This document shows, piece after piece, positions 525 to 26,184 of a stretch of DNA of 64,000 bases. Position numbers and translations under genes: made by a program. This DNA is from Nitrospirota bacterium (GTDB lineage: Bacteria; Nitrospirota; Nitrospiria; Nitrospirales; Nitrospiraceae). The stretch lies in contig CAVPBK010000006.1 of NCBI GenBank assembly GCA_963701855.1, positions 32,001-96,000 on the forward strand, given 5' to 3'. Under the pieces are notes generated by a model. The model saw only the letters and a program-made list of their open reading frames with translations, was not told the origin of the DNA and made no database searches. The number at the start of each line of letters is the position of its first letter. Position 1 is the first letter of the stretch.

Positions 525-526
525 AT

Positions 527-3033: not shown

Positions 3034-3220
3034 CGGCTGCTGAAAAATGGAGCAGGGGAGCGGCCAGGTGCCCTTCTTGCTCGCAGAACGCGCACGATGA
3101 AACTGTGCTCGTTCGATGCGCGCAGTAAAGGGCAGCCTTGGCCACTCCCCTTAAGAGAGGGTATAAGGAATCGGACGGCCCTCCCTGTGGCCTCGTTGGA
3201 AACCAGTTTGAGCAGCCGCT
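3032..3220. repeat. Family A shell A4 containing a family B hairpin (3054-3151)
   Basis: Ends AGCGGCTGCTGAAA / TTTGAGCAGCCGCT; left end overlaps the TAG of the FN3 gene; internal TTGCTCGCAGAACGCGCACGAT..GTTCGATGCGCGCAGT core. Confidence 0.85.
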
Positions 3221-3255
3221 TATGAATACGAAAACGATGAAGCGTGCTCTCTGTA

Positions 3256-3424
3256 GCAGGATGCTCAAATAGACGATCCAACAAGGCCGCAGGGAGTCCG
3301 GCGACTGAGGCGTACATTTCTCACCCACCCACCCCGAGCTGCCAAGACAGCTCTTTCACCAGTGGGTACGTCGCAAGGAGACGGGCGACTGAGAACAAAA
3401 CTGGAATACAGCTAGAGCCGCCGC
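3256..3424. repeat. Family A copy A5 (opposite orientation, mismatched ends, loop insertion)
   Basis: GCAGGATGCTCAAA..CAAGGCCGCAG..GAGGCGTAC[insert]GGGTACGTCG..GAGAAC..GAGCCGCCGC. Confidence 0.75.
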
Positions 3425-3470
3425 TTTGATGAGGCAAGTTGTATGGGGTCATTGTGCTAAAGAAATCCCG

Positions 3471-3597
3471 GCAGGATGCTCAAAACGGTCATCCAGCAAG
3501 GCCGCAGGAGAGAAATAACCGGAGGCGTACCCTCTGGGGTACGTTGAGGATTATTTCGACCCGAGAACGACGCTGGGGACTGTTTTCAGCATCCTGC
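3471..3597. repeat. Family A copy A6 (short form)
   Basis: GCAGGATGCTCAAAACGGTC / GACTGTTTTCAGCATCCTGC; core GAGGCGTACCCTCTGGGGTACGTTGAGG; abuts the stop of the FGE-domain gene. Confidence 0.9.
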
Positions 3598-4466
3598 TAA
3601 GATTTGGCGCAGCGGAAGCCCGTATAGCTATTGCGCGTCTCGGGTGAGAGCTTGAAGCGGCCATAGGTGAGGAGATACTTCGGCAGGTCTGACCAAGATC
3701 CACCGCGCAGCACTTTGAATTGCCCCTGTTCTGGTCCCTGCGGATTTTGTTCCGGCGAGACTTCGTAATAGTTCGCGGCATACCAATCCTGCACCCACTC
3801 CCAGACATTCCCAGCCATTTGATAGAGCCCGTATGGACTCTTGCCTTGCTCATAGGACTGCACGGGCATCAAGACCTGGCTGTAGCTGAAGCGCGCACCC
3901 AACCCGAAATTCGCCAGATCTTTACTTGGAACCCAATTGCCCCAGGGATATAATTTTCCGTCTGTTCCCCTGGCCGACTTCTCCCATTCCGCTTCGGTGG
4001 GAAGCCGCTTTCCCATCCACTGACAATAGGCATCAGCGTCCGACCAGTCCACTCCAATCACCGGCCGATCACTATGCTGCGACAGATCGACCATGTCCCA
4101 TTGCCAGGGCGCAGGGCGGTTTGTCGCAGTAAAAAACGAAGCGTACTGTCCTGTCGTGACCTCGTAGAGATCGATAAAGAAAGCAGGCAGCCAGATCTGA
4201 TGTTTTGGCCGCTCATCCTCTAAGGCCTGCATCCCATCCATTCCCATTCTAAACTCACCGGCTTGAATCTCGGCCATAGGAGTTCCAGCAACAGCCATCG
4301 TGTCCAAAGCCTTGGACTTCCTGAGCCGGTCAAGCTGAGCGGTTGCATTAGTATCGGGCACAAGAAGGAGAAGGATAGTCAAAACGATCAATGCTCTCAC
4401 GCACCCAACCCCGGCGGCTATTCCACCCTCCCGCCCTGAGGCTACCAAGATAGCCTCTTTGCCCAT
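3597..4466 (-). CDS. Formylglycine-generating enzyme (FGE-sulfatase/SUMF1) domain protein
   Basis: RLPTEAEWEKSARG, MAGNVWEW, RGGSW and GFRCA motifs; the ORF-track extension to 4775 is repeat-derived. Confidence 0.9.
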   Translation of the reverse strand: MGKEAILVASGREGGIAAGVGCVRALIVLTILLLLVPDTNATAQLDRLRKSKALDTMAVAGTPMAEIQAGEFRMGMDGMQALEDERPKHQIWLPAFFIDLYEVTTGQYASFFTATNRPAPWQWDMVDLSQHSDRPVIGVDWSDADAYCQWMGKRLPTEAEWEKSARGTDGKLYPWGNWVPSKDLANFGLGARFSYSQVLMPVQSYEQGKSPYGLYQMAGNVWEWVQDWYAANYYEVSPEQNPQGPEQGQFKVLRGGSWSDLPKYLLTYGRFKLSPETRNSYTGFRCAKS

Positions 4467-4524
4467 GGGCGCGCCTTTCACCTTACAAGGCCGCAGGAAG
4501 TTTGAACGCCGAGGTGTACGCGGA

Positions 4525-4735
4525 AGGATGCTCAAAAAGGTCATCCAACGTGGCCGCAGGCGAGAGAAAACAGGAAACGTAATATTCTCACCCGCCCGCT
4601 CCGAGCCGGACGAACAGCTCTTATCCGATGGGCTATGTTGAGAATTTTGTCGAGCCGAAAACCAACCCTGGGTCAGGCGCGTCCCGGCGCGCCGGGGTTG
4701 GGCGGGTGAGAAGATGACCTTTTTCAGCATCCTGC
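4525..4735. repeat. Family A copy A7 with two internal modules
   Basis: AGGATGCTCAAAAAGGTCATC / GATGACCTTTTTCAGCATCCT; contains GGCGCGTCCCGGCGCGCCGGGGTTGGGCGGGTGAGAA, also seen in A9; a core fragment precedes it at about 4487-4522. Confidence 0.85.
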
Positions 4736-4737
4736 TG

Positions 4738-5397
4738 TCAATGGAGGATTCCACTGACCACCCAATGCCGATCATCGATGACGTCGATGAGCAGGCGGCT
4801 GAGGTTCAGTTCGGCTAACTGCGCCGCTACTTCATCTTCGGTGAACGCCGCCAACAGCGAATTATAAAAATCACGCCGCAACACCTCTGGCTCCTTTGCC
4901 GCGTAACGATCCACGATGGCCTGCGCCTCTTCGGGCGAATCCGGTCTGAGCAGATCCATCACGAGCACAGAGGAGCCTGGCTTCACCAGTTGCCGCAGCC
5001 GATACCAGAACTGCAAGGGATTGGGCACATGATGCAACAGGCTGTTGGAGACTGCGGCATCGGCCGGTTCAACCAGCGAAACCGCTTGAAAACGCTCGCA
5101 GCGAAAGGTAATCCGGTCGGCCAGACCTGCCAGCGTCACAGACGCGCCAGCGAGGCCAATCATCGGCTCCGACGCATCGACCGCGGTGATGCGACAAGCG
5201 GGATAGGCCTGAGCGAAGCGGATAGGAATATCGCCGGGACCACAACCCAGGTCGAGCAGATGCCCCTCGGAAAAATCGGGAAAGTATTCACGGAAACGAT
5301 CGACGAAACCTTGATTCTCTTTTTCAAAATCCGCCTTTGCATAGACAAGCGCCTGCTCAGGATCGTCCATGAGTTCTGGTTCAAGGGTACGGTTCAT
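4738..5397 (-). CDS. Class I SAM-dependent methyltransferase
   Basis: LDLGCGPG motif I, SNSLLHH. Confidence 0.88.
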   Translation of the reverse strand: MNRTLEPELMDDPEQALVYAKADFEKENQGFVDRFREYFPDFSEGHLLDLGCGPGDIPIRFAQAYPACRITAVDASEPMIGLAGASVTLAGLADRITFRCERFQAVSLVEPADAAVSNSLLHHVPNPLQFWYRLRQLVKPGSSVLVMDLLRPDSPEEAQAIVDRYAAKEPEVLRRDFYNSLLAAFTEDEVAAQLAELNLSRLLIDVIDDRHWVVSGILH

Positions 5398-5414
5398 GGC
5401 TTTCCTCGCGTAGA

Positions 5415-5470
5415 CTGAGGCTGAGGTTAAGGCTAAGTTCGATCAAACGTGACCTCAGCCTTGACCTTAG
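5415..5470. repeat. Inverted arrays of degenerate hexamers (AGGYTR)n / (YARCCT)n
   Basis: CTGAGGCTGAGGTTAAGGCTAAG ... TGACCTCAGCCTTGACCTTAG; same design at 37112-37197. Confidence 0.7.
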
Positions 5471-5955
5471 TCTGCTTCTACTATGACTTCGTCGCCCGGT
5501 CTCACCACGCCCTCACGCAGCACTCTCGCATAGAGCCGACTCCATCCTGGGTTCAATTTCTGAGACACGCGTTTGTAGTCTCTGTCCCGGAACCACTGTG
5601 CATTTTTATCGCAGGGACTCGTATAACTCATGATCTCTATCTGCACCTCTGGCCCGACTTGGAGCCTGTCCCCTGGTTTCAGCTTTTCCCACTCAAGCCC
5701 GGCGAGCGTCAGGTTCTCTCCGGAAAAGCCGGCCTCGATTGAATGGCCCTCGTCCTGCAACCGCTCGATCAGCTCTTGCGAATACAGACAAACCGCACGA
5801 TCGGGTCCGCCATGGAATTTGAGGTTCTGTTGCCGGTCGCCCTCGACTCCGGTTTTTGAGATAACGGCCTCCAGCACCGGATGTTTCGGCACACCTCCAT
5901 CCGACACATTAATCTGGTACACGTGGGAATAGGGTGGCCATCCATTCTCAGTCAT
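5467..5955 (-). CDS. MOSC domain-containing protein
   Basis: GGVPK, HGGPDRAVCLY, GENL, PC and GWSRLYARVL motifs (YiiM-like). Confidence 0.88.
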   Translation of the reverse strand: MTENGWPPYSHVYQINVSDGGVPKHPVLEAVISKTGVEGDRQQNLKFHGGPDRAVCLYSQELIERLQDEGHSIEAGFSGENLTLAGLEWEKLKPGDRLQVGPEVQIEIMSYTSPCDKNAQWFRDRDYKRVSQKLNPGWSRLYARVLREGVVRPGDEVIVEAD

Positions 5956-6839
5956 CAGCTCACTCCTTCACAGGATTCCGCCACTAGCAACTCCAACGCC
6001 ACCCAGCCCTCTTGTTCACGCCGCTGAACCAACAGGGCGCCGACCTTGGAGAATGCCTCGATAATCTCTTGTTCTTGATCAAGCAGAATGCCGGACAGTA
6101 AGAGCTTCGCACCGTGGCTTACGTACTGCGCCAATTCATCGCGCAGCAGGAGCAGCGTCTGGCGATCGAGATTGGCGAGCACCAGATCTGGCCGCAGCTC
6201 GCCATGCGGGTCAACATCTTCCAGAGTTCCGCACCGGAATTCGAGATGGCCCCCAAACCCGTTCTCTGTGGCATAGTCTCGCGCGCAATTTACCGCAACA
6301 GGATCGCACTCCACTCCGATGGCGGAGGCTGCCCCGAGCCGCAGCGCAGCCATCGCCAGAATGCCGCTCCCCGCCCCCACATCCAGCACGGATTCACCAC
6401 CGTGAACGAGGTCTTCAAGCCATTCCAACAACATCCGTGTCGTCGCATGATGACCCGTGCCGAATGCCTGCTTCGGATCGAGTACGATCTCAATGTCCCG
6501 TGTCTGCAACGCCACCGGTTCCCAACTCGGCCTGACCACAATCCGCTTACCGATCCGAATCGGTCTGACCGACTGAGCCCACTGCCGATTCCAATCCTGA
6601 TCGGGCAATTCCTCAACACGGATATCGCTCTCGGACGAAACGTCCGGATCGAGTTCCTGCAGAGTCCTGCTCAGGCGAGCACGTGCCTCCATGCTCCACT
6701 GTGGTTTCGGCCAATAGAGATGGACCACCCCGTCCTCATCCCATCCGCCTTGAATCGAGGGATCAGACAGCATGCCGAGCAACTCTGCCGCATCGACCAC
6801 GGTCCGAATCTGGACATCGATCCACCCCTCTGAGTTCAT
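5955..6839 (-). CDS. prmA: Ribosomal protein L11 methyltransferase
   Basis: DWNRQW, PSW, DPKQAFGTGHHATT, LDVGAGSGILA, LLLSGIL. Confidence 0.92.
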   Translation of the reverse strand: MNSEGWIDVQIRTVVDAAELLGMLSDPSIQGGWDEDGVVHLYWPKPQWSMEARARLSRTLQELDPDVSSESDIRVEELPDQDWNRQWAQSVRPIRIGKRIVVRPSWEPVALQTRDIEIVLDPKQAFGTGHHATTRMLLEWLEDLVHGGESVLDVGAGSGILAMAALRLGAASAIGVECDPVAVNCARDYATENGFGGHLEFRCGTLEDVDPHGELRPDLVLANLDRQTLLLLRDELAQYVSHGAKLLLSGILLDQEQEIIEAFSKVGALLVQRREQEGWVALELLVAESCEGVS

Positions 6840-6924
6840 AATGGCCTAGGAGCCTGCGGAAAACTCTCAAGGCACGCCGAAGTTTCATTTTTCAGCACGC
6901 TTGGAATACCGATGGTGCACCACA

Positions 6925-7182
6925 CAGGATGCTCAAAATGGCCGCCAGCGAAGCCGCAACGAGCAAAAAGGCGAAGGAGGTACGTACCGCACTTCGTGTG
7001 GGCCGTTCGCCCGTCGAATGAATCTTGGCGAACGGAAAAGCCCCTCCAGTAATTCCGACATCCGAGAGGCTCTGTTCGGTATGTTGAGCTTCTGAGCGAT
7101 GCGAGAACAAAGCATGGGAAAAGGCGCGTCTCGGCGCGCTGGGGTTGGGCGGGTGAGAAGGGTGACTTTTTCAGCATCCTGC
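6925..7182. repeat. Family A copy A9 (long form, two internal modules)
   Basis: CAGGATGCTCAAAA / TTTTTCAGCATCCTGC followed by TAG; a large insert between CGTAC and GTATGTTGAG. Confidence 0.85.
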
Positions 7183-7223
7183 TAGAGTTGACGCACTCTT
7201 CCCCATCCAGTAAGGTCGGCGCT

Positions 7224-9083
7224 ATGCTCCAAGACCAACCTGTCACGCCCATGACGAAAGCCCATACACTGACACGCCTGGTGGCGAAACTCGACCGTGT
7301 AATCGCCTTGGCCACCGCATCGAGTTCCGCACTCACCCGTTGGCGTCTCATCCTGTTCATCGTCGGAGCGATCTGCACGGTAGCCCTGTACAAAATGGGA
7401 TGGTATCAAGCCGGCAATGGGGCGCTTCTCATCTTCGTCGCCCTGTTTTTAACTGTGGCCGCCTATCATAACAGGCTCGAAAGTCGCTTGCACCGCCTTC
7501 GCCTCTGGAAGCAGATCAAGCTCGTGCACTTGGCACGTCTCCGGCTGGATTGGCCTCATATTCCCACTCGTCCGTCGAGCGCTCCCGAGCACCATCCCTA
7601 TGCCAAAGACTTGGACCTGGTCGGCCCCCACTCGCTCCTTCATCTGCTCGACACCACGGTCTCCTCACACGGACAGGCGCGGCTGGCGTCGTGGCTGCTT
7701 GAGCAACCGCCGAAACCGGACCAGTGGCTCAAGCGTCGCCGCCTGGTGCAGGAACTCATTCCGCGATCGCTGTTTCGGGATCGGCTGGGGCTTGAAGCTC
7801 AGCTCATCGGCGAACAGGAAATCAACGGGCGACGACTGGAAGCCGTTCTTCAGCATACAGTTGGATTCCCTCGCCTCACGACGATCTTAGCGATTCAAAC
7901 CCTGCTGGCCGCCGCCACCATCGGACTCGGCTTGAGTGCGCTACTTGACTGGCTGCCGAATTATTGGATGTGGTCCTTTGCACCCTATGCCTTGATCTAT
8001 TTCTGGACCGATCAGGGCGAAGAGCTATTGGAACATGCGGTGGGCGTGCACTTCGAACTGGAGAAGCTGGGAGCCGTACTGGGGTTTGTCGAACGACATG
8101 CACGGCCTAGCCACACGACGCTCACCGACTTGTGGGCACCGCTGCTTACGCCGGGGATGAATCCGCCTAAGCTCGTCCGGCAAGCGGCCCGCACCCTGCA
8201 TGCGATCAGCGTCAAAGCCCATCCGCTCATCCATCTGGCCGCCAACGCGTTCTGCCCATGGGATCTGTGGTTCACCTACCGGCTCCAACAGATTCAGGCT
8301 CAGGTAGCCGACCACCTGCCGACCTGGCTGGATCGACTGGCCGAGGTCGAGGCCGCCTCGGCACTCGCCACCTTTGCCGCGCTCCATCCATCGTATCGCT
8401 GGCCGGATCCATTTACCGCCGATCCGCAGCGTAACGGAGCGCAGGCCAGGCTGTCGGCCAAAAGCCTCGCCCATCCGCTGATTCCTGAGACTCACCGGGT
8501 CTCAAACGATCTTGCCCTCGAAACAGGGGGAACCGTACTCCTGATGACCGGGTCCAACATGTCGGGGAAGAGCACCTTCTTACGAACCCTGGGCATCAAT
8601 CTCTGCCTCGCTCAGGCAGGCGCCCCGGTCTGCGCCGATCTTTTCGAATGGACCTGGGCGCGCCTCGCCACCTGTATCCGCGTGGACGACTCGCTCGAAG
8701 CGGGCTTGTCTTTTTTCTATGCCGAGGTGAAACGCCTCAAGAGCCTGCTCGACGCGACGGCCGATCGATCCAGCGTACCGGTGGTATTCCTGATCGACGA
8801 GATATTCAAAGGCACCAACAATCGTGAACGGTTGATTGGGAGCCGTTCCTTCATTACCGCTCTCTCGCAAGGCAATGGATTTGGCTTAGTGACCACCCAT
8901 GATCTGGAATTGACCGATCTCGACAAGACGGTGCCAGGATTGCGGAACGCCCACTTTCAGGAAACCGTGGCAGCCGGCGCGCTGCAATTCGACTACAAGC
9001 TCAGACCCGGTCCCTGCGCCACAACCAACGCTCTGCGAATTATGGAACTGGAAGGGTTGCCGGTGCCTTCGCCTCAGGCCTGA
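7224..9083 (+). CDS. Membrane-anchored MutS-related ATPase (MutS domain V only)
   Basis: N-terminal hydrophobic helices; TGSNMSGKSTFLR Walker A, SFFYAEV, IDEIFKGTN, TTHDLEL. Confidence 0.88.
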   Translation: MLQDQPVTPMTKAHTLTRLVAKLDRVIALATASSSALTRWRLILFIVGAICTVALYKMGWYQAGNGALLIFVALFLTVAAYHNRLESRLHRLRLWKQIKLVHLARLRLDWPHIPTRPSSAPEHHPYAKDLDLVGPHSLLHLLDTTVSSHGQARLASWLLEQPPKPDQWLKRRRLVQELIPRSLFRDRLGLEAQLIGEQEINGRRLEAVLQHTVGFPRLTTILAIQTLLAAATIGLGLSALLDWLPNYWMWSFAPYALIYFWTDQGEELLEHAVGVHFELEKLGAVLGFVERHARPSHTTLTDLWAPLLTPGMNPPKLVRQAARTLHAISVKAHPLIHLAANAFCPWDLWFTYRLQQIQAQVADHLPTWLDRLAEVEAASALATFAALHPSYRWPDPFTADPQRNGAQARLSAKSLAHPLIPETHRVSNDLALETGGTVLLMTGSNMSGKSTFLRTLGINLCLAQAGAPVCADLFEWTWARLATCIRVDDSLEAGLSFFYAEVKRLKSLLDATADRSSVPVVFLIDEIFKGTNNRERLIGSRSFITALSQGNGFGLVTTHDLELTDLDKTVPGLRNAHFQETVAAGALQFDYKLRPGPCATTNALRIMELEGLPVPSPQA

Positions 9084-9164
9084 CCGTTGCCACCTTTTTA
9101 TTCCGTCCCTGCTGTGCTAAGACTCCGGCACGATTCGGGCGCATTCACCTGCTTGAGAGGCGCC

Positions 9165-11366
9165 ATGACCATCCAACCCTGGATCACCTGCCTGCAAAGC
9201 GGGATACTCATCCATCATCTCGAAGCTCGCTACCCTGAAGAGGCATCGAAAGTCGATCTCCAGCGGGTTATGGGAGCAGCCGAATCGTTCCAAGAGATTC
9301 AGGATGCCCGTGCGTTCCTCACCGATACAAGCAATTGGATTCCCCATTCGGTCTTTCGTGAATTGATCAAGACCTGTGAGCTGGCATCCGGCGAGAAAGA
9401 CTTCACCTATCTGGCCGCCCTGGCCTATTACGAAACCGTCAAGACACAGACCCCGACACTAATTGAAACAATTGCGATCCTCCTCAACGACGTCGAATCG
9501 GTCTTTCGTTCTGTCGGCAACTGGGCCTCAGCCTATACGAACTATCTTCAGCTTCAGTCGTTCGTCTGTCCGGATGAACCACGGACCTTGCACATTCTGT
9601 CCCGAAACTTACCGCCGGTCGATCCTGGATTGGGAAATATGCGTCTGGTGCAGGGCAATCTCGAAGGCACTGCGAAACTGGATCCCTCCGTCGAAACTGC
9701 TGCCTGCGAAGAAGCCTACTCACAACTCCGCTTAGAAACCCTGGTCAATGAGTTTGGCGACGCCTACGACATGACCACGAAGAACGATCGGATCACTGTG
9801 GCCCGCCGATCGACGGGCGACGTCGTGATCACAGGACGAACGATTCGTCTCATTCAGACGCTGATCCCCATCAAAACCGATCGCATTCCCGCTCCGCATG
9901 GTTCAGACGCACAACTTGTCGCCGCACTTGAAGGGCAGGACCATCTCTCGGTCTGGACAGCTGAAGAGCCGGTTCGAAGATCCAAGACACACCTCCCCAA
10001 GCAGGACGATCATTGCACCGCTCTCCGCATCGAGCGCGGCGGCACCCTCTCGACTGGATCACTCAGTACCACGATCAAAGCCGGCTCGATCTACAACGCG
10101 CCGTATACTCATTATCGCCTGCATTGGGCGATCCGCTCTCCACACGCAAGCAACGCCGCTGCCGCCGCCCGCTCGCAACACGTGACGGACCGGCGCGCCT
10201 TCGCCTATCAGCTCTTTACCCATTTGAAAAACCTACAGGCGACGCATCGACACATGCTCACCATGTTCCTTCGCAATGTGGAGCTGGCGCAGGAGAATAT
10301 CCAACTGAAGCAGGAGCTGTCTGCGCAGCAAAAAACCGGCGGCATTATCGGCAAGAGCGCTCTCCTTCAAGATCTTCTTTCCCTGGTTAGAACCATCGCT
10401 CCTTCGGACACAACCGTTTTAGTGACCGGAGAAACAGGGACGGGGAAAGAACTCGCCGCCCGTTTAATCCATCAACTCAGCCGACGCAAGGACCGCCGTT
10501 TTGTCGCCGTGAATTGTGGAGCACTGCCTGAAACACTCTTGGAAAGCGAGCTGTTCGGTCACGAGAAAGGGTCGTTCACCGGCGCGATAGCCCAGAAGAA
10601 AGGGAAATTCGAGCTCGCCGAGGGAGGCACACTGTTTCTCGACGAGATCGGCGACATTTCGCCCGCGGTGCAGGTGAAATTGCTACGAGTGCTTCAAGAA
10701 CGAGAGTTTCAGCGCGTCGGAGGAACGAGTGATCTTAAAGCGAATATCCGGCTGATCGCTGCCACGAATCGAGACCTCCTGGCAATGATGGAGCAGAACC
10801 AGTTTCGACAAGACCTGTTCTATCGTTTGAATGTCATCCAGCTCTATGTCCCGGCCTTGCGAGAACGTCCAGAGGATATTGCTGAACTCGCCCAGCATTT
10901 CGTCCAGCGATTCGCCGAGAAAACCGGAAAATCCATCGCTGGCTTGACGCCGGACGCACTGAAGCTCTGCCTGGCTTACAAATGGCCCGGTAACATCCGC
11001 GAGCTGGAGAATGTCATGGAGCGCGCCGTGACGTTGGCGCCGGAAGGCAAGAAATGGATTGCTCCTGACCTGCTCCCGAGCAATCTACGTTCGACGACGG
11101 AATCGGCACCCTCGCTCGATCTTGCCGAGTTGGTGGACCATGTTGACTGGAGTGCGCTGCTTAAAACCCTAGAGACACGAGGATCGCTCACCGGACTCTT
11201 GAACTACCTCGAATGGACCATCACGCGCCGCGCCGTCGCCGAATATGGCGGCAACAAGAGCCGCGCCGCGAAAGTCCTCGGGCGCACCTATCGCTGGTTG
11301 CGAAAACTCGAGACGGAAATGACTCATCGAGAGACTCCACCCCCCAATCCCGACTCACATTCCTGA
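9165..11366 (+). CDS. Sigma54-dependent transcriptional activator (bEBP) with a large uncharacterised N-terminal domain
   Basis: [41 protein letters not shown]-terminal Fis-type HTH; no recognisable receiver domain. Confidence 0.92.
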
Positions 11367-11724
11367 TTCCCCGATCATCTTGCCAGCACTCGGTTCCACC
11401 CCCAAGGATGAACGCCGGCTCCGCCCTATGAATAACAATTCATAGTTCAGCCCGCTGAGCTCATCTTTGGATAGCAACGACAGGGAGGCATTGGTGATCC
11501 TTTTGACCTAGCTTGTCACTCAAGCAATTGTTCTATGATTTGAACTGACTAGTCTCTACAAAGAAAAGATGCCTTGTGCTTCCTTCATAGACTGCCCCTT
11601 GACCAGATTTCGCATCCCATCTGATTCAGCCTTGAATCGAATTTGATACACAGAGTAGGGCTGCCTCGTATGAACTGACTGCGTAACATTCCATCCAGCC
11701 CAACAATTGATTTCATTCTCTATC

Positions 11725-11740
11725 TGGCATTGCGATTGCA
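11725..11740 (+). promoter_or_regulatory. Sigma54 (-24/-12) promoter
   Basis: TGGCATTGCGATTGCA matches TGGCAC-N5-TTGCW with exact spacing, 36 nt before the ATG at 11777 and just downstream of a bEBP gene. Confidence 0.75.
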
Positions 11741-11776
11741 CAAACCTGATCAGGACACCGGGCAAGGAGCCGCACA

Positions 11777-12478
11777 ATGATGCGTACAGTTCATCAATTT
11801 TTCGTTCAACATCTAAGAAGTGTTGTTTGTATCGCAATTACGGCGACCCTCGTATCATGCGCCTCAACGACCGGGACAAAAACCACTCTTACATCCGCAG
11901 ACCTTTCGAAGATCACAAAAACGGGTATCATCGTCGAATCCAAACACTCCCTCTCGGTTCGTGTTGCCCGAGAGCAGATGACAAATACGGGGGCTGTTCT
12001 CTTTGGCTTGATTGGCGCTGCTGTGGAGGCAGGATATAAGTCTTCAAAAGACTCTGGTCATGAGGAAGAGATTGGTCGCGTCCTTGGCGACTTCGATCCG
12101 GCGAAAGACAGCGCTGCCGCGTTTCGCGAAAAGTTCCTAGCAGGAAAAGTATTTCCTATTGTCGAGGTCGTTCAAACAGAAAATGCCCGTGGCCTGAAAG
12201 AGCAGGGGTTCGATGCCGTGTTTAAAGAAACGATCGAAGAATGGGGGTTACGGCTGTGTTCGGGAGAGGAAAATGTACAAGTGGGATTTGACATACATGC
12301 GCAGCTTGTCTCGCTCCAGAATGATAGGACGATTTGGGAACGCGATGAGTTGTTTATGGAAGGCCCCTGTCGTCCCTTGAGAGATTTTCGGAGTGATCGA
12401 GAATTGCTTCGAGCCAGCCTTAAGCAAGCATCCGAGACCATAGCGGGAAGAATCGCGAACGAGATTGCCTTTCCGTAA
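11777..12478 (+). CDS. Putative lipoprotein
   Basis: Hydrophobic signal with LVSC lipobox; LFGLIGAAV glycine-rich helix. Confidence 0.75.
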   Translation: MMRTVHQFFVQHLRSVVCIAITATLVSCASTTGTKTTLTSADLSKITKTGIIVESKHSLSVRVAREQMTNTGAVLFGLIGAAVEAGYKSSKDSGHEEEIGRVLGDFDPAKDSAAAFREKFLAGKVFPIVEVVQTENARGLKEQGFDAVFKETIEEWGLRLCSGEENVQVGFDIHAQLVSLQNDRTIWERDELFMEGPCRPLRDFRSDRELLRASLKQASETIAGRIANEIAFP

Positions 12479-12495
12479 ATACAGTGGAGGCTTTT

Positions 12496-14666: not shown

Positions 14667-14725
14667 CGGAAGCTACTCTCCCCCTGTATGGTTTGCGAAC
14701 CTCTCTAGCAGAAAGGGGTGGAAAC

Positions 14726-19068: not shown

Positions 19069-19706
19069 TGACATCTCCCATCGCTGAACGCCGAGTGCTG
19101 CTCACCGCCATAGTCATTGGACTTGTCCTATCAGGGATTAGCCCCAGAGACCGCCTGACTTGGTTCCTGGAAGCCGCACCAGTACTGATCGGGATTCCCA
19201 TCCTCGTGGCAACCCACACCCGGTTCCCTCTTACGCCATTGATATACCGGCTGTTTGTCGTGCATGCAGTCATCCTCATGGTCGGCGCACATTACACCTA
19301 TGCCGAAGTCCCCCTGGGTCGTTGGGTCCAAGACGCCTTCGGCCTCGCCCGAAACCACTACGATCGCCTCGGCCATTTTGCCCAAGGCTTCGTGCCGGCA
19401 ATGCTGGCGCGGGAGCTCCTTCTACGAACGTCTTCGTTGCAACAGGGACGCTGGCTCTTCTTCCTTGTTACCTCAGTGTGTCTCGCGTTCAGCGCAAGCT
19501 ATGAACTCTTCGAATGGGGAACTGCGCGTACGCTCGGTCAATCCGCCACCGCCTTTCTCGGTACCCAAGGCGATGAATGGGACACTCAGTGGGATATGTT
19601 TCTCGCACTCCTCGGTTCAGTCATCGCTCAGATATGTTTATCCAGCACACATGATCGCCAATTAGAGGCTCTGCATCTCCGCCCTTTGCAGAGAGGCCGC
19701 TTGTGA
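19068..19706 (+). CDS. DUF2238 (YjdF-like) membrane protein
   Basis: TWFLE, HYTYAEVP, RNHYDRLGHF, FLGTQGDEWDTQWDM. Confidence 0.85.
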   Translation: MTSPIAERRVLLTAIVIGLVLSGISPRDRLTWFLEAAPVLIGIPILVATHTRFPLTPLIYRLFVVHAVILMVGAHYTYAEVPLGRWVQDAFGLARNHYDRLGHFAQGFVPAMLARELLLRTSSLQQGRWLFFLVTSVCLAFSASYELFEWGTARTLGQSATAFLGTQGDEWDTQWDMFLALLGSVIAQICLSSTHDRQLEALHLRPLQRGRL

Positions 19707-20683
19707 AAGAGGCAGCTAAGAAAATTCTGATCGACTGCCATGTCCACCTGGCCGCTCTGCCGGACGGCGACAACGGCTGCTACATCTCCCCGAAGATGCT
19801 ACGAAGCCCGCTGTTTCGCTATCTCCTATGGAAACACCAACTGTCTCCGGCAAACCCACGGGAAGCGAACCGGAAATATCTCGACGATCTGCTCACCGAA
19901 TTGCGCGCCTCCCTCCATGTTCAACGAGCCGTACTCCTTGGTATGGACGGCGTGTACGACCAAAACGGCCGCCTCAACCAGGCGCACACAGACTTTCTCA
20001 TCAGCAACAACTATGTACTCAACATTGCAAGGGCCTACCCGAATGAGTTCCTCGCCGGCGTCTCGATCAATCCTCAACGACGTGACGCCGTCGAAGAGGT
20101 CCATCGTTGCGCCGATGCCGACGCCGCATTGGTGAAGGTCCTCCCGAACGCGCAGCAGTTCAACCCGGCCGATCTGCGCTACAAAGCGTTCTACCGAGCA
20201 CTCGCAGAACGGAAGCTGCCGTTCCTGAGTCACGTCGGGTATGAATTCAGCCTCATCGGAAAGGACCAGTCCGTCGGAGACCCGAATCGCCTCAGGCCGG
20301 CGCTGGAAGAAGGCGCTACCGTGATTGCCGCGCATGCCTGCAGTTACGGATTGATCATCTATGAAAAGTTTCTTCCGACTCTGCGCGACTTCGTACAACG
20401 GTACCCGAATTTTTATGCGGACATCTCCGCCCTCACGCTGCCCACGCGGGTCCAGATGCTGCTCCACCTACGTCGCTACCCCGAAATTCATGACCGCCTG
20501 CTCTTCGGGACCGACTATCCCCTGTCCGTCTTTCATCTGGCAGCCTGGGGGCGCGTCTCGCTCGCCACACTCTACGACATCCTTCGAACGAAGAATCGTT
20601 TCGATCGGCAAGTGTCAGTCTGTCGTGGATTAGGGCTCGGCTTTCGATCGCTGGGCGACATTGTGGCCCAGCATACGTTGTAA
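19703..20683 (+). CDS. Amidohydrolase family 2 protein
   Basis: IDCHVH, IAAH, YADISA, LFGTDYP. Confidence 0.85.
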   Translation: MKEAAKKILIDCHVHLAALPDGDNGCYISPKMLRSPLFRYLLWKHQLSPANPREANRKYLDDLLTELRASLHVQRAVLLGMDGVYDQNGRLNQAHTDFLISNNYVLNIARAYPNEFLAGVSINPQRRDAVEEVHRCADADAALVKVLPNAQQFNPADLRYKAFYRALAERKLPFLSHVGYEFSLIGKDQSVGDPNRLRPALEEGATVIAAHACSYGLIIYEKFLPTLRDFVQRYPNFYADISALTLPTRVQMLLHLRRYPEIHDRLLFGTDYPLSVFHLAAWGRVSLATLYDILRTKNRFDRQVSVCRGLGLGFRSLGDIVAQHTL

Positions 20684-20697
20684 CATCCCGCGACACT

Positions 20698-21195
20698 ATG
20701 AACCGAGACCAGATACTGACCAGCCTCAGAGAAAGGATTCTCGCCTTCGCGACATTACGAGTATCGAGGGCACAGGCCGAGGATTTGGCTCAAGAGGTGC
20801 TGGCGGTCCTCCATGAGAAGTATGCGTGCGTCACAGAACTGACCGAGCTGGTTCCCCTGGCCTTTCAAGTCCTGCGATTCAAGATGCTGGATACCCATCG
20901 CAAGTCGCTCAGACGAGGTGAGTATAATCAGGCATCGGTCGATGACCTCCCGCTCGCCGATCCCAACGACGACCCGGCGACGCAACTCGACCAGAGACAG
21001 CGGGTAGACCGGTTACTGGCTGCCATGGCTCAGCTCGGCGAACGCTGCCGCGAACTCTTCAAGTGGAAGTTGGAAGGGAACAGCTTTCCAGAAATCCAGA
21101 AGCTCATGGGACAAACCTCGATCAATACGATCTACACCTGGGACCTACGCTGCCGAAAGCAGCTATTAGCCCTCATGGGCGGATCATGGGAATGA
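20698..21195 (+). CDS. ECF-type RNA polymerase sigma factor
   Basis: AEDLAQE region 2 and LGERCRELF..SFPEI region 4; 165 aa. Confidence 0.85.
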   Translation: MNRDQILTSLRERILAFATLRVSRAQAEDLAQEVLAVLHEKYACVTELTELVPLAFQVLRFKMLDTHRKSLRRGEYNQASVDDLPLADPNDDPATQLDQRQRVDRLLAAMAQLGERCRELFKWKLEGNSFPEIQKLMGQTSINTIYTWDLRCRKQLLALMGGSWE

Positions 21196-21199
21196 AGTG

Positions 21200-21297
21200 G
21201 GGAGCGACAGGCAGACTGGCCCTTTGCTCGCAGAACGCGCACGATAAGACTGTGCTCGTTCGATGCGCGCAGTAGGCCCAATCTGCCTGCCGCTCCC
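21200..21297. repeat. Family B hairpin element
   Basis: Stem GGGAGCGACAGGCAGACTGGCCCT / AGGCCCAATCTGCCTGCCGCTCCC around the conserved core TTGCTCGCAGAACGCGCACGATAAGACTGTGCTCGTTCGATGCGCGCAGT. Confidence 0.88.
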
Positions 21298-21326
21298 GGG
21301 TGGAAGGGTACAAACGTAGAAGAACG

Positions 21327-22739
21327 ATGTCTGAACACGATCTCGAAAAACTACTGGGTGGATTCGCAGCCAATACGCTGACACCGGAGGAGAAACAGAC
21401 GCTCTATATCGCCGCGCTGCAAGACCAACAACTGTTCAATACGCTGGCAGATGAGCAGGCGTTGAAAGAGTTGCTCTCCGATCCAGACGTGCGTCGCAAA
21501 CTCCTGGCTTCATTGGAACAGAAGAGCGCCTCAGGCGCCGGCAGTTCTCTATCATGGCTGGATTGGTTCCGCCGTCCAGCAGGCCTGGCCCTCGCCGGAG
21601 GGCTTTCGGCAGCTGCCCTCGCAGTAGTGCTGGGCGTCAGAATTTATCAGGACAGCCTGAGATATGCGGCAGAATCGACCGCAACCGAAGACACAGAGCC
21701 CGCGCCTCCATCAGCTCCGATGCCTCAAGCCGTTGAGCCACAAGCGAAAACGAAAGAGAGCCTCGCTCCAGCGATCAACCGCCAGAAGAAGGACACGTTG
21801 ATCGACAAGCCAGCCCTACAGGAACAATCCATGCCGCCTCCTTCAAAGAACGAACGAGTTTCCGATGTTGCCCGAGACAGTCTGAAACAGCGAAGCCGGC
21901 AAGAAGAGGTCCGCAGCCAAGCCGAAACGCCCGTGGCTGCGCTCAGCAGGTCCGCGGAAGGAGTGACATCGTCTGCAGATCAAAAACCCGCAGCAAGCGC
22001 TGCACTACCAGCCACCACACCGGAGCCCGAGCAGATACAAACACCGGCCGCTGGGCGAGTCGCTGCCACCTTCACACCTGCGCTCGGCGCGCGGGCCCTG
22101 TTCTATGGAAAAGAACCAGGCCGAGCCGACACGCGCTCGATGGCCAAAGAGCAAGAGCAGGCCATCAAACCCCTGGCCGAGTCTGCGCCACAAGCGAACC
22201 AGCCCGAACGAAAACCGGAAAGGCTTTCACATCTGGGCAAAGCAGCGGGCACGATCGCTCAACTCAAACCTCTAGGACTCCGCTACAGCTTTGTGGTTCG
22301 GGAAATAGATGGGCAGGAGCGAGAAGTGGATACGGCGACGGCGTCGAAGAGTACACATCCGGTATTTCTCACAGCGGAAGCCAATCAGAACGCCCATCTG
22401 CAAGTTTGGAAAACGGTTGGCTCCTCAACGCCGCAACTGCTCTGGCCTGGGAAAGAAACTGGTCAAATCTCCCTGAAGCTGACCGCTGGTCAGCGTGAAC
22501 AGATTCCTCTGCAGAGGGAGGACGGACCCATCACCCTGACGGCTCGTCTCTCCCTAGTCCCGTTCGAACCAACCATGAAGCACGAAACCGCCATGTTCGA
22601 CCGGCTCTCTCCTAACCAACTCCAAGAATCTATCACCGCAAGCAATCGAACCGGCACACAAGAACACGCCACCTACGTCGTCAACCAAGATACTTCCAGC
22701 GGCGCACAGGTCACCATCAACATTACCCTCGGTCAGTAG
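21327..22739 (+). CDS. Putative anti-sigma factor-like membrane protein
   Basis: Directly after the ECF sigma; short cytoplasmic helical domain, one TM helix, low-complexity linker, C-terminal beta domain. Confidence 0.65.
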   Translation: MSEHDLEKLLGGFAANTLTPEEKQTLYIAALQDQQLFNTLADEQALKELLSDPDVRRKLLASLEQKSASGAGSSLSWLDWFRRPAGLALAGGLSAAALAVVLGVRIYQDSLRYAAESTATEDTEPAPPSAPMPQAVEPQAKTKESLAPAINRQKKDTLIDKPALQEQSMPPPSKNERVSDVARDSLKQRSRQEEVRSQAETPVAALSRSAEGVTSSADQKPAASAALPATTPEPEQIQTPAAGRVAATFTPALGARALFYGKEPGRADTRSMAKEQEQAIKPLAESAPQANQPERKPERLSHLGKAAGTIAQLKPLGLRYSFVVREIDGQEREVDTATASKSTHPVFLTAEANQNAHLQVWKTVGSSTPQLLWPGKETGQISLKLTAGQREQIPLQREDGPITLTARLSLVPFEPTMKHETAMFDRLSPNQLQESITASNRTGTQEHATYVVNQDTSSGAQVTINITLGQ

Positions 22740-22760
22740 CCTCAAGCGTCAGGCAGGCTC

Positions 22761-23063
22761 CTAGCCTGGTAGCTTTGCCGCGAGGACATCGACTTTCTCG
22801 ATGGACGGCGGTTTAGCCAACAGCTCACCGGCCTTTGCCATAAGCGCCGCTGCAACCCGGCCCGTCAGATGGGCCTGACGGCCCGCCTCATCAGGGAAAG
22901 CGTCAAAGATGCCGAACGTGGATGGCCCCAAGCGGATCCCAAACCACGCCGTGGTGGCCGGCTCTGCCTGTACGATTGGAAGACCGGATAAAAGAAAATT
23001 TTCTACATCTTTCTCTTTCCCGGGCTTTGCTTCTAGACGAACGAACAACGCGACCTTGACCAT
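22761..23063 (-). CDS. Antibiotic biosynthesis monooxygenase (ABM) family protein
   Basis: LEAKPGKE..EPATTAW..FGIFDAF..GRQAHL; GGAGG RBS. Confidence 0.85.
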   Translation of the reverse strand: MVKVALFVRLEAKPGKEKDVENFLLSGLPIVQAEPATTAWFGIRLGPSTFGIFDAFPDEAGRQAHLTGRVAAALMAKAGELLAKPPSIEKVDVLAAKLPG

Positions 23064-23207
23064 GAGGTGCCTCCCCTTTACGCGGGACTTGCGAAAAACG
23101 CGCGACGGGTCGGAAGTTTCATCTCCTCGAGTCACGCCTGTCGCGCACGTTTAGCTTGTCTCGCTCATGAATAATTCTGGCTGGGCTTCCATATTTCTGC
23201 TCGCAAT

Positions 23208-23444
23208 TTACTCTCCACAGGCTTTTAGCTTCCGTTCTTCTATTGCCGCGAGTGACTCCTTTCGAATTTTCACATCCGACGCTTTCTCACCCTCAGGAGA
23301 GTGCACGTCCGTGTCGACTGCTTCTGCGTATAAACGGGCGGCCTCAACACATGCCTTACTGGGAGGCGATTTTGAGTCACATGCCGCAATAAAGATTGTG
23401 CAAGCGAGAGCAGCGGTAATAGGTATGACAAAACGTGTGGTCAT
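23208..23444 (-). CDS. Small putative lipoprotein
   Basis: GGAGG RBS, hydrophobic signal with IAAC lipobox. Confidence 0.6.
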   Translation of the reverse strand: MTTRFVIPITAALACTIFIAACDSKSPPSKACVEAARLYAEAVDTDVHSPEGEKASDVKIRKESLAAIEERKLKACGE

Positions 23445-23648
23445 TGTGTACATCCTCCAAATATTAGGCACCCAACCACTGCGTATACCGACCGCAATAG
23501 TACGCAAAGTAGGGTGAAAAATTCCACTGTGATTGTCGTGCCGATTCAAAGGCCCCTCAACACTATCCACACAGCCGGTTTGGCGTGCGATACGGGTCGG
23601 TGTACCGCTTTAAATTGAGGAGGGTATTCTGAATTCACGTCGACAGCC

Positions 23649-23857
23649 AGCCTGCATTACTCATGCAGGTTGGTCGCCCCCCACCCCATCCCTCCCCATA
23701 ATATGGGGAGGGATGAAGGAGGGGAGCGAGACGGGAACCCGGAACCGTAAAGCCCTGAGGCATACTCGTGCAGTATGTCGAAGGGCTGAACGGCGAGACT
23801 GCCCGTCGCAGCCGCGTATCCACGCTTGTAGCAGAAGCTTCACGAATATTGCGGGCT
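23649..23857. repeat. Family C palindromic element C1
   Basis: Ends AGCCTGCATTACTCATG / CACGAATATTGCGGGCT; core GAGGCATAC-N-GTATGTCGA; internal hairpin CATCCCTCCCCATA-AT-ATGGGGAGGGATG. Confidence 0.75.
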
Positions 23858-23885
23858 AAAGCCCTCACGACCACCTCGCACAGCC

Positions 23886-24200
23886 CTATCGATCTTGGAT
23901 CCGTCCAATTTTACTTTCGATCGCCCGTTGTAGTTTGTCTGCGGCTTCAGTCACGGCGATCTCGATGGTCGCTGCCTCATGGCTCACCGCGAAAGGCTGG
24001 AGACCGGCCAGTCTGGCTTCGAGCAAACACCGTTTGTCGTCACCCTTTGATTTGTGACTGTTAGTGTCACTGAGGTGAGCCTCCACGCGGGTAATCCGGT
24101 CTCCAAACCGGCCAACAGCCCCCTCTACAGTGGACTGGACGAGGCTCACGACATCTTCACGCCCTGTAATGTTGTTGTCTGTATGAACCTGAATCTGCAT
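23886..24200 (-). CDS. HPF/RaiA-family ribosome-associated protein
   Basis: MQIQVHTD, ITRVEAHLSD, DKRCLLEARL. Confidence 0.85.
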   Translation of the reverse strand: MQIQVHTDNNITGREDVVSLVQSTVEGAVGRFGDRITRVEAHLSDTNSHKSKGDDKRCLLEARLAGLQPFAVSHEAATIEIAVTEAADKLQRAIESKIGRIQDR

Positions 24201-24365
24201 CAATCCACCCTCCTCGTAGCGACCATTCACTCTATAGACCGGAACCTAACGACAAGCCTGAGAAATGTCAATCGGATGAACGCAGAGGGTCCAGACTCCG
24301 ATGTTTCCTTCCATGGCTATGGCTTTTGCGCCTATAGTTCAAATGGCACTACCAGTCGGCTGTCA

Positions 24366-24968
24366 TCACTTAGTCTTCTTAGCTACAAGATAGACATGAT
24401 TCTCCGGGTATTGATCATATTCAACATGTTGAATGGCGCAGCCAAAACGCCAGAGGAGCTGGACAAAATCTGGAACCCCTAGCGAGCTATATTCAAATCG
24501 CTTTCCGCCAAATTCGCCTTGAACTCTCCCCCGTTCTTCACCGCCACCACAGGAAAACAGGATCACCCCGTTCTTGGACAGCCCGTCACATAACTTCAGC
24601 AGGACCGGTTCATGACTTTCCAGTGGAAGGTGGAACGTGCTGTCCCAGGCCGTGATCAAATCGTACTTGCGTGGAAGCTGCCATGTGCACATATCGCCCA
24701 CCAAAAAATCAGCGTCTGGATATCGTGTACTCGCTAAGGCGACCATCGCATCCGAGATATCCAGCCCGGTGCAGTGGAACCCGCGCTCCTGAAGAATTCT
24801 TATAAATCGCCCTTCACACCCACAGCCAACATCCAGTGCATGACGGCGGTTCTCCACAAATGTGAGCGCGCGCTCAAGAGCCGCGACTCCGTACGTCGAC
24901 TCCTTCATTTGCTCGAGCCACCACGACGCCATCGCATCGTAGTTCTTTCCGGTTTCTTCTGGATTCAT
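24366..24968 (-). CDS. Class I SAM-dependent methyltransferase
   Basis: ALDVGCGCEG, GLDIS, AWDSTFHLP. Confidence 0.85.
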   Translation of the reverse strand: MNPEETGKNYDAMASWWLEQMKESTYGVAALERALTFVENRRHALDVGCGCEGRFIRILQERGFHCTGLDISDAMVALASTRYPDADFLVGDMCTWQLPRKYDLITAWDSTFHLPLESHEPVLLKLCDGLSKNGVILFSCGGGEERGRVQGEFGGKRFEYSSLGVPDFVQLLWRFGCAIQHVEYDQYPENHVYLVAKKTK

Positions 24969-25061
24969 CTATCTATCGTATTGAATCAAACGAGGTAGTC
25001 CGCAAAGAAACAATTAAAAGGGTCTAAGAAAGCCTTTTTCTCTCCCTTATTTGCAGAATCG

Positions 25062-25358
25062 TCAATTACGGTTCTTCCACATGTCAGGTTCTCGGTGCAG
25101 ATGCAGAACAGCCAGAACGTTGATGTCCTCCGACGTTGCGAGGAAATACACGCCATAAGGAAAATGGCGAAGGAGGGCTCGGTGAATGTCTCCTTCCACA
25201 CGCGGGAATTGTCGAGGATTGTCCGTGATACGTTGAAACACCACATCGAGTTCGTCAAGGAACCGCGAACCTAAGCCGGACCGCTGATCCTCATACCACA
25301 CGGTGGCTGCTTGGATGTCGAGGTCAGACTGAGGGAGGACAACGAGTTGCCATGCCAT
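25062..25358 (-). CDS. RelE/ParE-family type II toxin
   Basis: WYEDQRSGLGSRF, HFPYGVYF, LAVLHLHREP; downstream of an addiction-module antitoxin. Confidence 0.88.
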   Translation of the reverse strand: MAWQLVVLPQSDLDIQAATVWYEDQRSGLGSRFLDELDVVFQRITDNPRQFPRVEGDIHRALLRHFPYGVYFLATSEDINVLAVLHLHREPDMWKNRN

Positions 25359-25366
25359 TCGTCAGA

Positions 25367-25606
25367 TCAACGATCTCGCAACTTGCGCTCGATGTCTGTG
25401 CGGACATCTGTCCAGAGTCGGCCGGCGCTGGGGTTCGCATTGTATGCCGCCAAGCGCTCGCGAATGATCTGTCGGTGCCACTCGGGCACAGGAACTTGCT
25501 CAGCGGTCGCCGCAATCCGGTCCCAGAGAGATTGCACGAAGTCGATCTGCTCATCGACTGAGAGATCGTCGAACCCTGGAGGAGGAATGGGGACCATCTT
25601 GGACAT
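25367..25606 (-). CDS. Putative addiction module antitoxin
   Basis: LSVDEQIDFVQSLWDRI..VPEWH..RLAAY..W pattern, paired with the ParE-like gene. Confidence 0.85.
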   Translation of the reverse strand: MSKMVPIPPPGFDDLSVDEQIDFVQSLWDRIAATAEQVPVPEWHRQIIRERLAAYNANPSAGRLWTDVRTDIERKLRDR

Positions 25607-25897
25607 GGAGAGAACTCCTACGATCGGAAGTATATCGTAAACGGACGGTTAAGAAAACCTGACAAAGTCAGCCCCGATAGTGGCAATCAATAGTTTCTGG
25701 AACCTTTTTCGGCTCGATTCATCTGATGATCTCAATTCCGCTGCGGGCCGGACGCCTTACATGTCAGAAAAACCAGAATGTCCCCGTTTTTTCGTCCAAC
25801 GTTCCTTCTACGCTTGCTCCTTACCGCCTAGCACGGGAAGCTGCTCAGTCTCCCACTGCGCTTGTTTGGCAAGACTCAACTCTTTCACCTGCACTCA

Positions 25898-25993
25898 GCG
25901 AGGTGGCTGGTGTGGTCTCCACTGCGCGCATCGAGCGACCACCGCTTTATCGTGGGGGCTCTGCGAGCAAAGAGACCATACCAGCCACCTCGC
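25898..25993. repeat. Family B hairpin element (divergent, reverse orientation)
   Basis: Stem GCGAGGTGGCTGGTGTGGTCTC / GAGACCATACCAGCCACCTCGC; core ACTGCGCGCATCGAGC..TCTGCGAGCAA. Confidence 0.8.
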
Positions 25994-26070
25994 CACCCTC
26001 TTCCCAGACCGCGCGTTGCACGAGCACAGGAAACTACCAGCTTGCTTTATCGATCCCATCCACCTCTCCT

Positions 26071-26168
26071 AGGGGAGTGGGCAGATTGTCCTTCACTGCG
26101 CGCATTGGACGAGCACAGTTTCATCGTGCGCGTTCTGCGAGCAAGAAGGACGGCCTGCCCACTCCCCT
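26071..26168. repeat. Family B hairpin element (reverse orientation)
   Basis: Stem AGGGGAGTGGGCAGATTGTCCTTC / GAAGGACGGCCTGCCCACTCCCCT with the conserved core. Confidence 0.88.
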
Positions 26169-26184
26169 CATCGCTGAAACGACA

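Follow-up and report, generated by a model that had tools for sequence, protein, structure and literature searches.

What are the long imperfect hairpins that recur between genes in a 64,000-nucleotide stretch of a Nitrospirota genome, and how did they come to be there? The stretch (GenBank assembly GCA_963701855.1, contig CAVPBK010000006.1, positions 32,001 to 96,000; hereafter the window, with positions counted from its first letter) had previously been inspected from its letters alone. That sequence-only reading listed four copies of a hairpin, called family B, in which a core with fixed mismatches and a bulge sits between outer stems that vary from copy to copy, and proposed either a structured RNA or a recombination site in single-stranded DNA. 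Here we show that family B is a covarying, intergenic, high-copy repeat with invariant unpaired bases, a biased orientation and rapid turnover between close relatives. The reading we lean towards, while stopping somewhat short of calling it probable, is that family B is gene-less DNA, mobile or recombining but not autonomous, that acts in the form of a single-stranded hairpin, of the kind represented by repetitive extragenic palindromic (REP) sequences and REPINs or by MITEs (miniature inverted-repeat transposable elements) derived from IS200/IS605.

Copy number, pairing and range

All four copies were recovered where they had been placed (Table 1). A pattern of the 50-nucleotide (nt) core matches the window three times without a mismatch, against an expectation of 0.00 in shuffled sequence, and the 22-nt 5′ part of the core, with three positions left free, matches four times against 0.04 in shuffles. 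Scanning the window with a covariance model, R1, built from 25 copies (the four of the window and 21 from one relative), revealed no further top-strand copy; the top strand is here the strand on which the hairpin was originally read. The four copies are only a sample of those in the source genome (G000; 4.30 Mb in 15 contigs). A fuzzy search with the 5′ core found 84 copies there, a profile search 171 matches, 114 of them full length, and R1 at least 146, which is a lower bound because 150 of 1,566 candidates were scored.

Every window copy forms a single long, imperfect hairpin; z-scores run from −6.8 to −7.9 for the stated strand and from −8.2 to −10.3 for its complement (for the stated strand, copy 1 reaches −62.7 kcal/mol at z −6.8 and copy 4 reaches −64.6 kcal/mol at z −7.9). 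In a MAFFT alignment of the 25 copies, scored on a structure of 34 pairs, 87.2% of the pair cells are paired compared with 75.2% after shuffling, and none of 500 shuffles reaches the observed value. Both sides change at 25 of the 34 pairs, and sliding the 3′ partners by one to three columns lowers pairing to 34–47%. A second alignment of 55 copies (54 distinct), which was fitted to the model and leans towards the structure by construction, gave 90.0% against 71.2%, both-sided changes at 26 of 34 pairs, and 35–49% with slid partners. In both alignments every one of the ten outermost pairs varies on both sides. The outer stems therefore differ and yet pair, as had been described, but they group into subfamilies and are not unique to each copy. 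The inner compensatory change from GAAC/GTTC to GAGC/GCTC, first noticed in one divergent copy, is real and recurrent: the pair concerned is A–U in 42, G–C in 8 and C–G in 2 of the 54 distinct copies. Copy 2 provides a similar case between genomes, its orthologues in the relatives G015 and G004 having exchanged GAGCG/CGCTC for GAGTG/CACTC with pairing retained. There are two main core types, A and B, distinguished by the apical helix and by several compensated pairs. The description of a core with fixed mismatches and a bulge also held, in that four unpaired bases (both bases of a T/C mismatch, the T of a C/T mismatch and the A of a GA bulge) are invariant in all 25 aligned copies.

The repeat is restricted to one bacterial family, f1, the taxonomic family of the source organism. 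R1 matches 111 of 120 other genomes of this family, a tally that includes three unpublished genomes, all matching (G036, G082 and G105; 108 of 117 without them), and the element occurs in 36 of 39 genera of f1, with the window's own genome counted. Copy numbers in these genomes saturate because at most 34 candidates were scored in each. Of genomes drawn from across the phylum, R1 matches 16 of 18 in f1 and none of the 132 from 21 other families. That the core is conserved over 36 genera implies that something reads its sequence.

Unit ends, nesting and turnover

The repeating unit comprises a short purine-rich lead, the 98-nt hairpin and a tail of 10–30 nt that often ends in GGAAGG; most copies carry both the lead and the 3′ tail. 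Among A-type copies, a GAAGG-like motif stands on the left flank in 32 of 50, compared with 9 of 50 control windows, and a purine-rich tail with a GGAAGG-like end follows in 24 of 50, compared with 2 of 50. Around the bare hairpins of the window we found no target duplication. The GAAGG that recurs to either side of the complete unit could be read as one. No exact empty site was recovered.

These flanks bear on whether family B could be a MITE of the classical type that a DDE transposase moves, with the hairpin formed by long terminal inverted repeats around a short core and bounded by a target-site duplication. The element is palindromic, gene-less, intergenic and multi-copy, DDE transposases are present in the genome, a site-specific 5-bp duplication could account for GAAGG at the left flank and the tail end, and the F family, a companion repeat that encloses hairpins, ends at CTAG on stop codons. 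We nevertheless consider this explanation decidedly improbable. The would-be terminal repeats are the most variable part and the centre is conserved, the reverse of a MITE; the bare window hairpins lack a flanking duplication; fixed mismatches and a bulge are not expected of DDE elements; and the orientation bias reported below is left unexplained.

By crude gene calls based on open reading frames (ORFs) of at least 150 codons, 109 of the 114 full-length copies lie outside ORFs. Sorted by spacer, 62 copies fall between co-directional genes, 26 between convergent and 21 between divergent ones. Nesting is common: an A-type unit often occupies the apical loop of a B-type hairpin and, conversely, a B-type unit may stand in place of the A-type apical helix. 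Copy 3 is such a case, being inserted in the apical loop of a degenerate B-type sister, both halves of which flank it, and this arrangement of a hairpin in its sister's loop recurs in many copies across the genome.

Turnover was followed by comparing 367 kb of G015, the closest relative found, with the source genome (340 kb aligned, mean identity 93.5%). Insertions and deletions separate the two in intergenic spacers almost everywhere, with at least 73 collinear breaks. A 175-nt composite of an F frame and a hairpin is present in G015 and missing from the source genome; at one spacer the two genomes differ in content, with a family-B hairpin in the one and an F element in the other; a hairpin kept at an orthologous site has acquired, in G015 and not in the source genome, a 48-nt G module inside its 3′ arm; and in another the 3′ half has been replaced by F sequence, giving an A-type/F chimera. 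Copy C1:51310 has undergone a deletion between short direct repeats of its two arms. In the window, copy 1, enclosed by an F frame, is kept at the orthologous site of G015, whereas at the orthologous site of G013 the same F frame encloses an intact F interior and no hairpin. Copy 2 has unrelated sequence at its site in six other relatives, whose orthologous spacers are too diverged to define the ends of the unit.

Two side observations belong to these comparisons. Relatives without copy 2 carry, at its site (spacers corresponding to window 21196–21326, loci L008–L014), tandem repeats of a 7-nt type, as TTCTGAG-like runs and CTTCACG/CCCTTAC-like runs. Elsewhere, the source genome has a 444-nt insertion (C6:1350141–1350586) relative to G015 contig C12 near 167.25 kb, which contains nested repeats and non-repeat sequence; on either side of it stands an imperfect direct repeat, some 22 nt long and drawn from the flanking sequence (TATGGATGC...CGCCAAT). 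The event is a complex one.

Such changes might also arise with no dedicated enzyme, by template switching or slippage during replication of quasi-palindromes, by gene conversion among dispersed copies and by hitch-hiking in mobile repeats such as F, with the compensatory changes being templated corrections and not a product of selection. Several observations speak for this. Apical parts are replaced and not simply inserted, as in the swap of an F interior for a hairpin and in the A-type/F chimera, each at an orthologous site; the deletion in C1:51310 lies between short direct repeats; the composite of F frame and hairpin is gained or lost as a single unit; no Y1 transposase gene was found in many element-rich genomes (see below); and the orientation bias fits hairpin formation at replication forks. 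Templated correction should, however, erase mismatches, whereas four unpaired bases never vary; the core has been kept across 36 genera; the flank motifs, by recurring, suggest that sites are chosen; and the first copy at each new locus still requires an insertion step. We regard an origin without an enzyme as unlikely, although it deserves to be taken seriously.

Strand orientation and the case for single-stranded DNA

Along the 1.63-Mb contig C6, GC skew and gene strand bias both flip near 0.85–1.1 Mb, outside the window, as at a replication origin. Among the 108 copies of the genome with a clear local skew, the top strand lies on the leading-sequence strand, and hence within the lagging-strand template, for 81 and on the other for 27 (60 against 21, with 1 tie, when counted by cluster). 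A complete genome of another genus, G145, gave 26 against 10, with 2 copies excluded and the origin placed at 2.7–3.1 Mb from sampled skew. The F family shows no replication bias in the source genome (48 against 59).

The orientation also follows transcription. In co-directional spacers, 50 copies run in the direction of the genes and 12 are opposed to it; divided by gene strand, the same and opposite orientations number 45 and 3 beside leading-strand genes and 5 and 9 beside lagging-strand genes. The lagging-template bias is confounded with transcription. When both terms were entered in logistic fits, the replication coefficient was 0.8–1.0 and the transcription coefficient 1.0–1.4; dropping the replication term gave p values of 5e-6 to 2e-3, and dropping the transcription term 2e-4 to 3e-3. 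Both terms put the top strand where DNA is single-stranded.

A dependence on transcription would also be expected if the hairpin were a structured RNA in 3′ untranslated regions, serving as a transcript stabiliser, a terminator without a U run or a protein-binding site, with the covariation reflecting selection on an RNA fold. The hairpin is very stable and covaries; the excess of copies running along the genes in co-directional spacers is joined by 16 of 22 copies in convergent spacers that share the direction of the nearer gene; the transcription term is significant in the fits; and copies 1 and 2 begin no more than 20 nt from a stop codon (copy 2 begins 5 nt past the TGA of ORF 20698–21195). 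Two metatranscriptome runs turned up in a search of sequencing runs, each with 8% of the sampled words. Against this explanation, copies 3 and 4 lie behind a terminator-like hairpin, and only 5 of 14 copies follow the genes in spacers of lagging-strand genes. In line with the sequence-only reading, the element also matches no Rfam family, a search of the whole window at gathering thresholds having returned 0 matches. In E-value mode, two 700-nt stretches yielded only eukaryotic microRNA-precursor models over the copies, at no more than 27 bits where the gathering scores are 64–268, and a few equally weak matches of other kinds beside them. Of the two options originally proposed, single-stranded DNA fits better and RNA less well, because orientation depends on replication as well as on transcription, the replication term remaining significant beside the other; because copies are polymorphic, chimeric, truncated and nested between close relatives; and because the strand that folds better and is richer in wobbles is antisense to most neighbouring genes. 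We judge the RNA explanation to be improbable.

For mobile DNA acting as a single-stranded hairpin, the following course may be envisaged, in which we infer a single-stranded intermediate, a target motif and a dedicated enzyme. The top strand would fold once it is single-stranded, whether because it is the template of the lagging strand or because it is the strand left untranscribed. Its fixed mismatches and bulge would be read by a trans-acting protein, and the unit would be cut and then joined into purine-rich, GAAGG-like single-stranded spots. The favoured targets would be the apical loops of other hairpin repeats, and joining into such loops would yield nested and chimeric copies with seemingly exchanged outer stems.

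A number of observations weigh against this reading, some of them concerning the strand. With RNA parameters the complement folds better than the top strand in 83 of 114 copies, with DNA parameters in 110 of 114, and transition mismatches between the arms give it 210 G–T wobbles as against 131 for the top strand, although the wobble and fold counts are not independent because subfamilies share mismatches. The strand exposed more often is thus the strand that folds less well. The replication bias is also uneven, being 23 against 4 on one arm of C6 and 7 against 6 on the other, and 54 against 8 in co-directional, 18 against 9 in convergent and 9 against 10 in divergent spacers, and the gene calls used here were the crude, ORF-based ones. 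In the complete genome G053, the two halves gave 24 against 7, but the parts with clear skew gave only 5 against 4 (0.8–1.8 Mb) and 1 against 0 (3.0–3.5 Mb). Of ten 20-kb skew samples, none outside these parts has a clear sign, and 10 of the 31 copies share one 90-kb cluster. This genome provides no clear signal and is not counted as support. As to insertion, the flank motifs are missing from a third to a half of copies, and the 367-kb comparison with G015 contained no exact filled and empty pair for a bare hairpin.

The search for an enzyme adds further difficulties. The sequence-only reading had looked to a tyrosine recombinase or a Y1 HUH transposase beside clusters of copies, but among the 83 ORFs next to five dense clusters we found no HUH enzyme or recombinase and only one transposase, of the DDE_3 type. 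The 15 ORFs enclosed by inverted copy pairs likewise contained no HUH enzyme, recombinase or transposase, and in both sets the genes are ordinary ones. Across f1, the Y1_Tnp domain (PF01797) was found in 69 of 120 genomes and was not found in 51, many of them element-rich, so that Y1 genes do not track the element; the near-complete genomes G001, G098, G135, G041, G056 and G062, with 10 to 34 or more scored copies each, are among those in which it was not found. An RAYT-like protein was found in 61 of the 120 genomes with no relation to the presence of the element: its gene occurs in the element-free G106, G088, G064 and G109, while the search of the element-rich G001, G098 and G135 yielded none. 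(Without the three unpublished genomes, the counts are 66 of 117 for Y1_Tnp and 58 of 117 for the RAYT-like protein.) In the source genome, the single RAYT-like gene (229 amino acids; 73.6 bits, below the cut-off of 80) has on its flanks 25-nt inverted repeats of its own, unrelated to family B, and was rejected as a partner on account of these repeats and the lack of co-occurrence. The IS200-type element of the same genome was rejected as well. It is 550 bp long, occurs in three copies of about 99% identity, encodes a 149-amino-acid transposase and has at both ends a 20-nt hairpin that is unrelated to family B.

Known systems and companion repeats

Family B resembles REP sequences, BIMEs and REPINs in being a set of high-copy, intergenic, imperfect palindromes that cluster, form mosaics and are lineage-restricted and long-lived. 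It also has conserved non-complementary bases in the stem (25 of 25 copies), which may be read by a protein. The REP transposase of Escherichia coli needs the stem mismatch of its REP (PMC3333891). The differences are equally plain. The hairpin measures 98 nt where a REP measures 30–40 nt; here the centre is conserved and the outer stem varies; within the first 20 nt, the top strand has the GTAG signature in only 8 of 114 copies and the bottom strand in 1 of 114; and there is no REPtron, the RAYT-like gene being accompanied by different repeats and showing no co-occurrence. That gene with its own repeats looks like a small, separate REP–RAYT system, in which the repeat occurs twice within a 204-nt tandem duplication on one side and the 14-nt repeat core occurs seven times in the genome.

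IS200/IS605 elements likewise have hairpins with irregularities, which in their case are read in single-stranded DNA. These elements use the lagging-strand template both for excision and for insertion, and insertions of IS608 also gather in highly transcribed genes (PMC5027513). Here, too, one strand is biased towards the lagging-strand template and orientation follows transcription, and the GAAGG-like flank and GGAAGG-like tail hint at a fixed short target and a similar right-end sequence. Family B differs in having one long hairpin with a tail where IS200/IS605 elements have separate left-end and right-end hairpins, and its ends are unrelated to those of the resident IS200-type element, as those of a MITE derived from it would not be. 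Gene-less IS200/IS605 derivatives go by the name of palindrome-associated transposable elements (PATE).

Integron attC sites also act as a folded single strand with extrahelical bases on a variable stem, and family B shares their approximate length and the imperfect hairpin with fixed extrahelical bases. Orientation rules relative to replication apply to attC as well (PMC5371416). We give next to no credence to the proposal that family B consists of attC sites, or of a close analogue, served by an integron-type tyrosine recombinase. The two R boxes (R″ and R′; RYYYAAC and GTTRRRY) occur together in 0 of 114 copies on either strand (the attC signature, like that of REP, being missing as had been noted); no integron integrase was found, the best match to TIGR02249 scoring 80.8 bits against a cut-off of 265; copies stand singly or in clusters of repeats and not in arrays of ORF and site; and the conserved part is central, whereas the centre of attC is its variable part. 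The attC identity was accordingly rejected on boxes, integrase and arrays.

ERIC, Correia/NEMIS, RUP and BOX are bacterial repeats of 100–150 bp, which family B resembles in size, hairpin shape, intergenic position, modular insertions and orientation-dependent effects. Those of known mechanism have conserved terminal repeats and target duplications, whereas here the termini vary and the core is fixed. The same contrast separates family B from classical MITEs with terminal inverted repeats, its terminal repeats being unconserved (10 of 10 outermost pairs vary on both sides). The element thus falls outside REP/RAYT, IS200/IS605-derived MITEs, attC and MITEs with terminal inverted repeats, and by analogy appears to work most like REP/REPIN and IS200/IS605-type substrates. 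The suggestion of an undescribed class was too strong in this respect, since this is an undescribed family of the broad REP/BIME/MITE kind; what stands is that no description of it was found in the part of the Nitrospira literature on REP or miniature inverted-repeat elements available to us. What is new here is the range across a whole family, the absence of a tracking Y1 gene, the exchange of modules at orthologous sites and the double orientation bias. A bolder possibility, to which we assign only a minor likelihood, is a recombination system of single-stranded DNA conserved in f1 and so far undescribed, whose enzyme, distinct from Y1 HUH transposases and from integron integrases alike, would read the extrahelical bases of the core, swapping hairpin modules or inserting them into hairpin loops. 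It would act wherever replication or transcription exposes the top strand.

Two further repeats accompany family B. The F family is a 129-nt repeat with the outer stem CAGGATGCTCAAAA / TTTTCAGCATCCTG and has 184 matches in the genome, 120 of them full length; one of its ends, CTGCTAG, often overlaps a TAG stop codon, and it often forms a frame around family-B hairpins. The G module is 48–52 nt long and consists of a short GC hairpin followed by the G-rich run GGGCGGGTGAGAA, a motif found 58 times in the genome; its place within the 3′ arm of family-B or F elements is fixed, and one module can stand in the loop of another. Downstream of ORF 26464–27471, in the interval that separates an F element from copy 4, the window also carries the terminator-like hairpin mentioned above (26185–26217, minus strand), with 15 pairs, 12 of them G–C, and then a T-rich tail. 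One of the 15 ORFs between inverted copy pairs encodes a 588-amino-acid protein without a Pfam match, whose N terminus, judged by eye, resembles a signal peptide.

Table 1. Family-B copies, their surroundings and other repeats. Positions refer to the window unless another location is named.
Feature	Position	Strand	Remarks
Copy 1, 98-nt hairpin, A-type core	3053..3150	+	R1 108.1 bits, model positions 1–98
Copy 1, 3′ tail	3151..3178	+	Read from sequence; ends in GGACGG, a variant of the family's GGAAGG-like end; probably part of the mobile unit
F-family frame around copy 1, 5′ arm	3032..3047	+	Inverted repeat with 3205–3219; overlaps the TAG stop codon of the upstream ORF
F-type frame around copy 1, 3′ part	3179..3220	+	Aligns to the 3′ part of the intact F of G013
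Copy 2, hairpin	21200..21295	+	R1 90.1 bits
Copy 2, short 3′ tail	21298..21307	+	Read from sequence; ends in GGAAGG; probably belongs to the unit
Copy 3, hairpin	25898..25995	-	R1 94.5 bits; GAGC/GCTC and CCCCAC/GTGGTC variant
B-type host of copy 3, 5′ half	26000..26042	-	B-type 5′ arm and core up to the loop
B-type host of copy 3, possible degenerate 3′ remnant	25838..25863	-	GCGCAGT-type core end, then sequence partly complementary to the 5′ outer stem of the host
Copy 4, hairpin, A-type core	26072..26169	-	R1 98.7 bits
Copy 4, putative 3′ tail	26045..26071	-	By likeness to the A-type tail consensus
F family	3471-3599	+	Five weaker or partial matches in addition to the five F positions given here
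F family	26259-26386	-	
F family	47133-47257	-	
F family	35353-35474	+	
F family	525-718	-	
G module	3330	-	
G module	4597	-	
G module	4700	+	
G module	7147	+	
G module	G015 locus L034, near 11988-12085		
25-nt repeats of the RAYT-like gene	L004 977-1001, 1181-1203, 1910-1934		G000 contig C11, about 85.8-89.2 kb
IS200-type copies	L001, L002, L003		G000 contigs C5, C12, C1

Family B combines a core of fixed unpaired bases with an orientation to both replication and transcription, and no HUH or integron enzyme tracks it. Should a dedicated enzyme exist, it would represent a new way of handling folded single-stranded DNA; should there be none, the family would be a clear natural case of hairpins spreading through replication errors and hitch-hiking. 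For the bacteria themselves, the repeats and the companion families nested with them fill much of the intergenic DNA of environmentally important nitrifiers and outpace all else in their rate of change between close relatives. As a result they shape the ends of operons and cause breaks in metagenome assemblies; they may also be mistaken for small genes.

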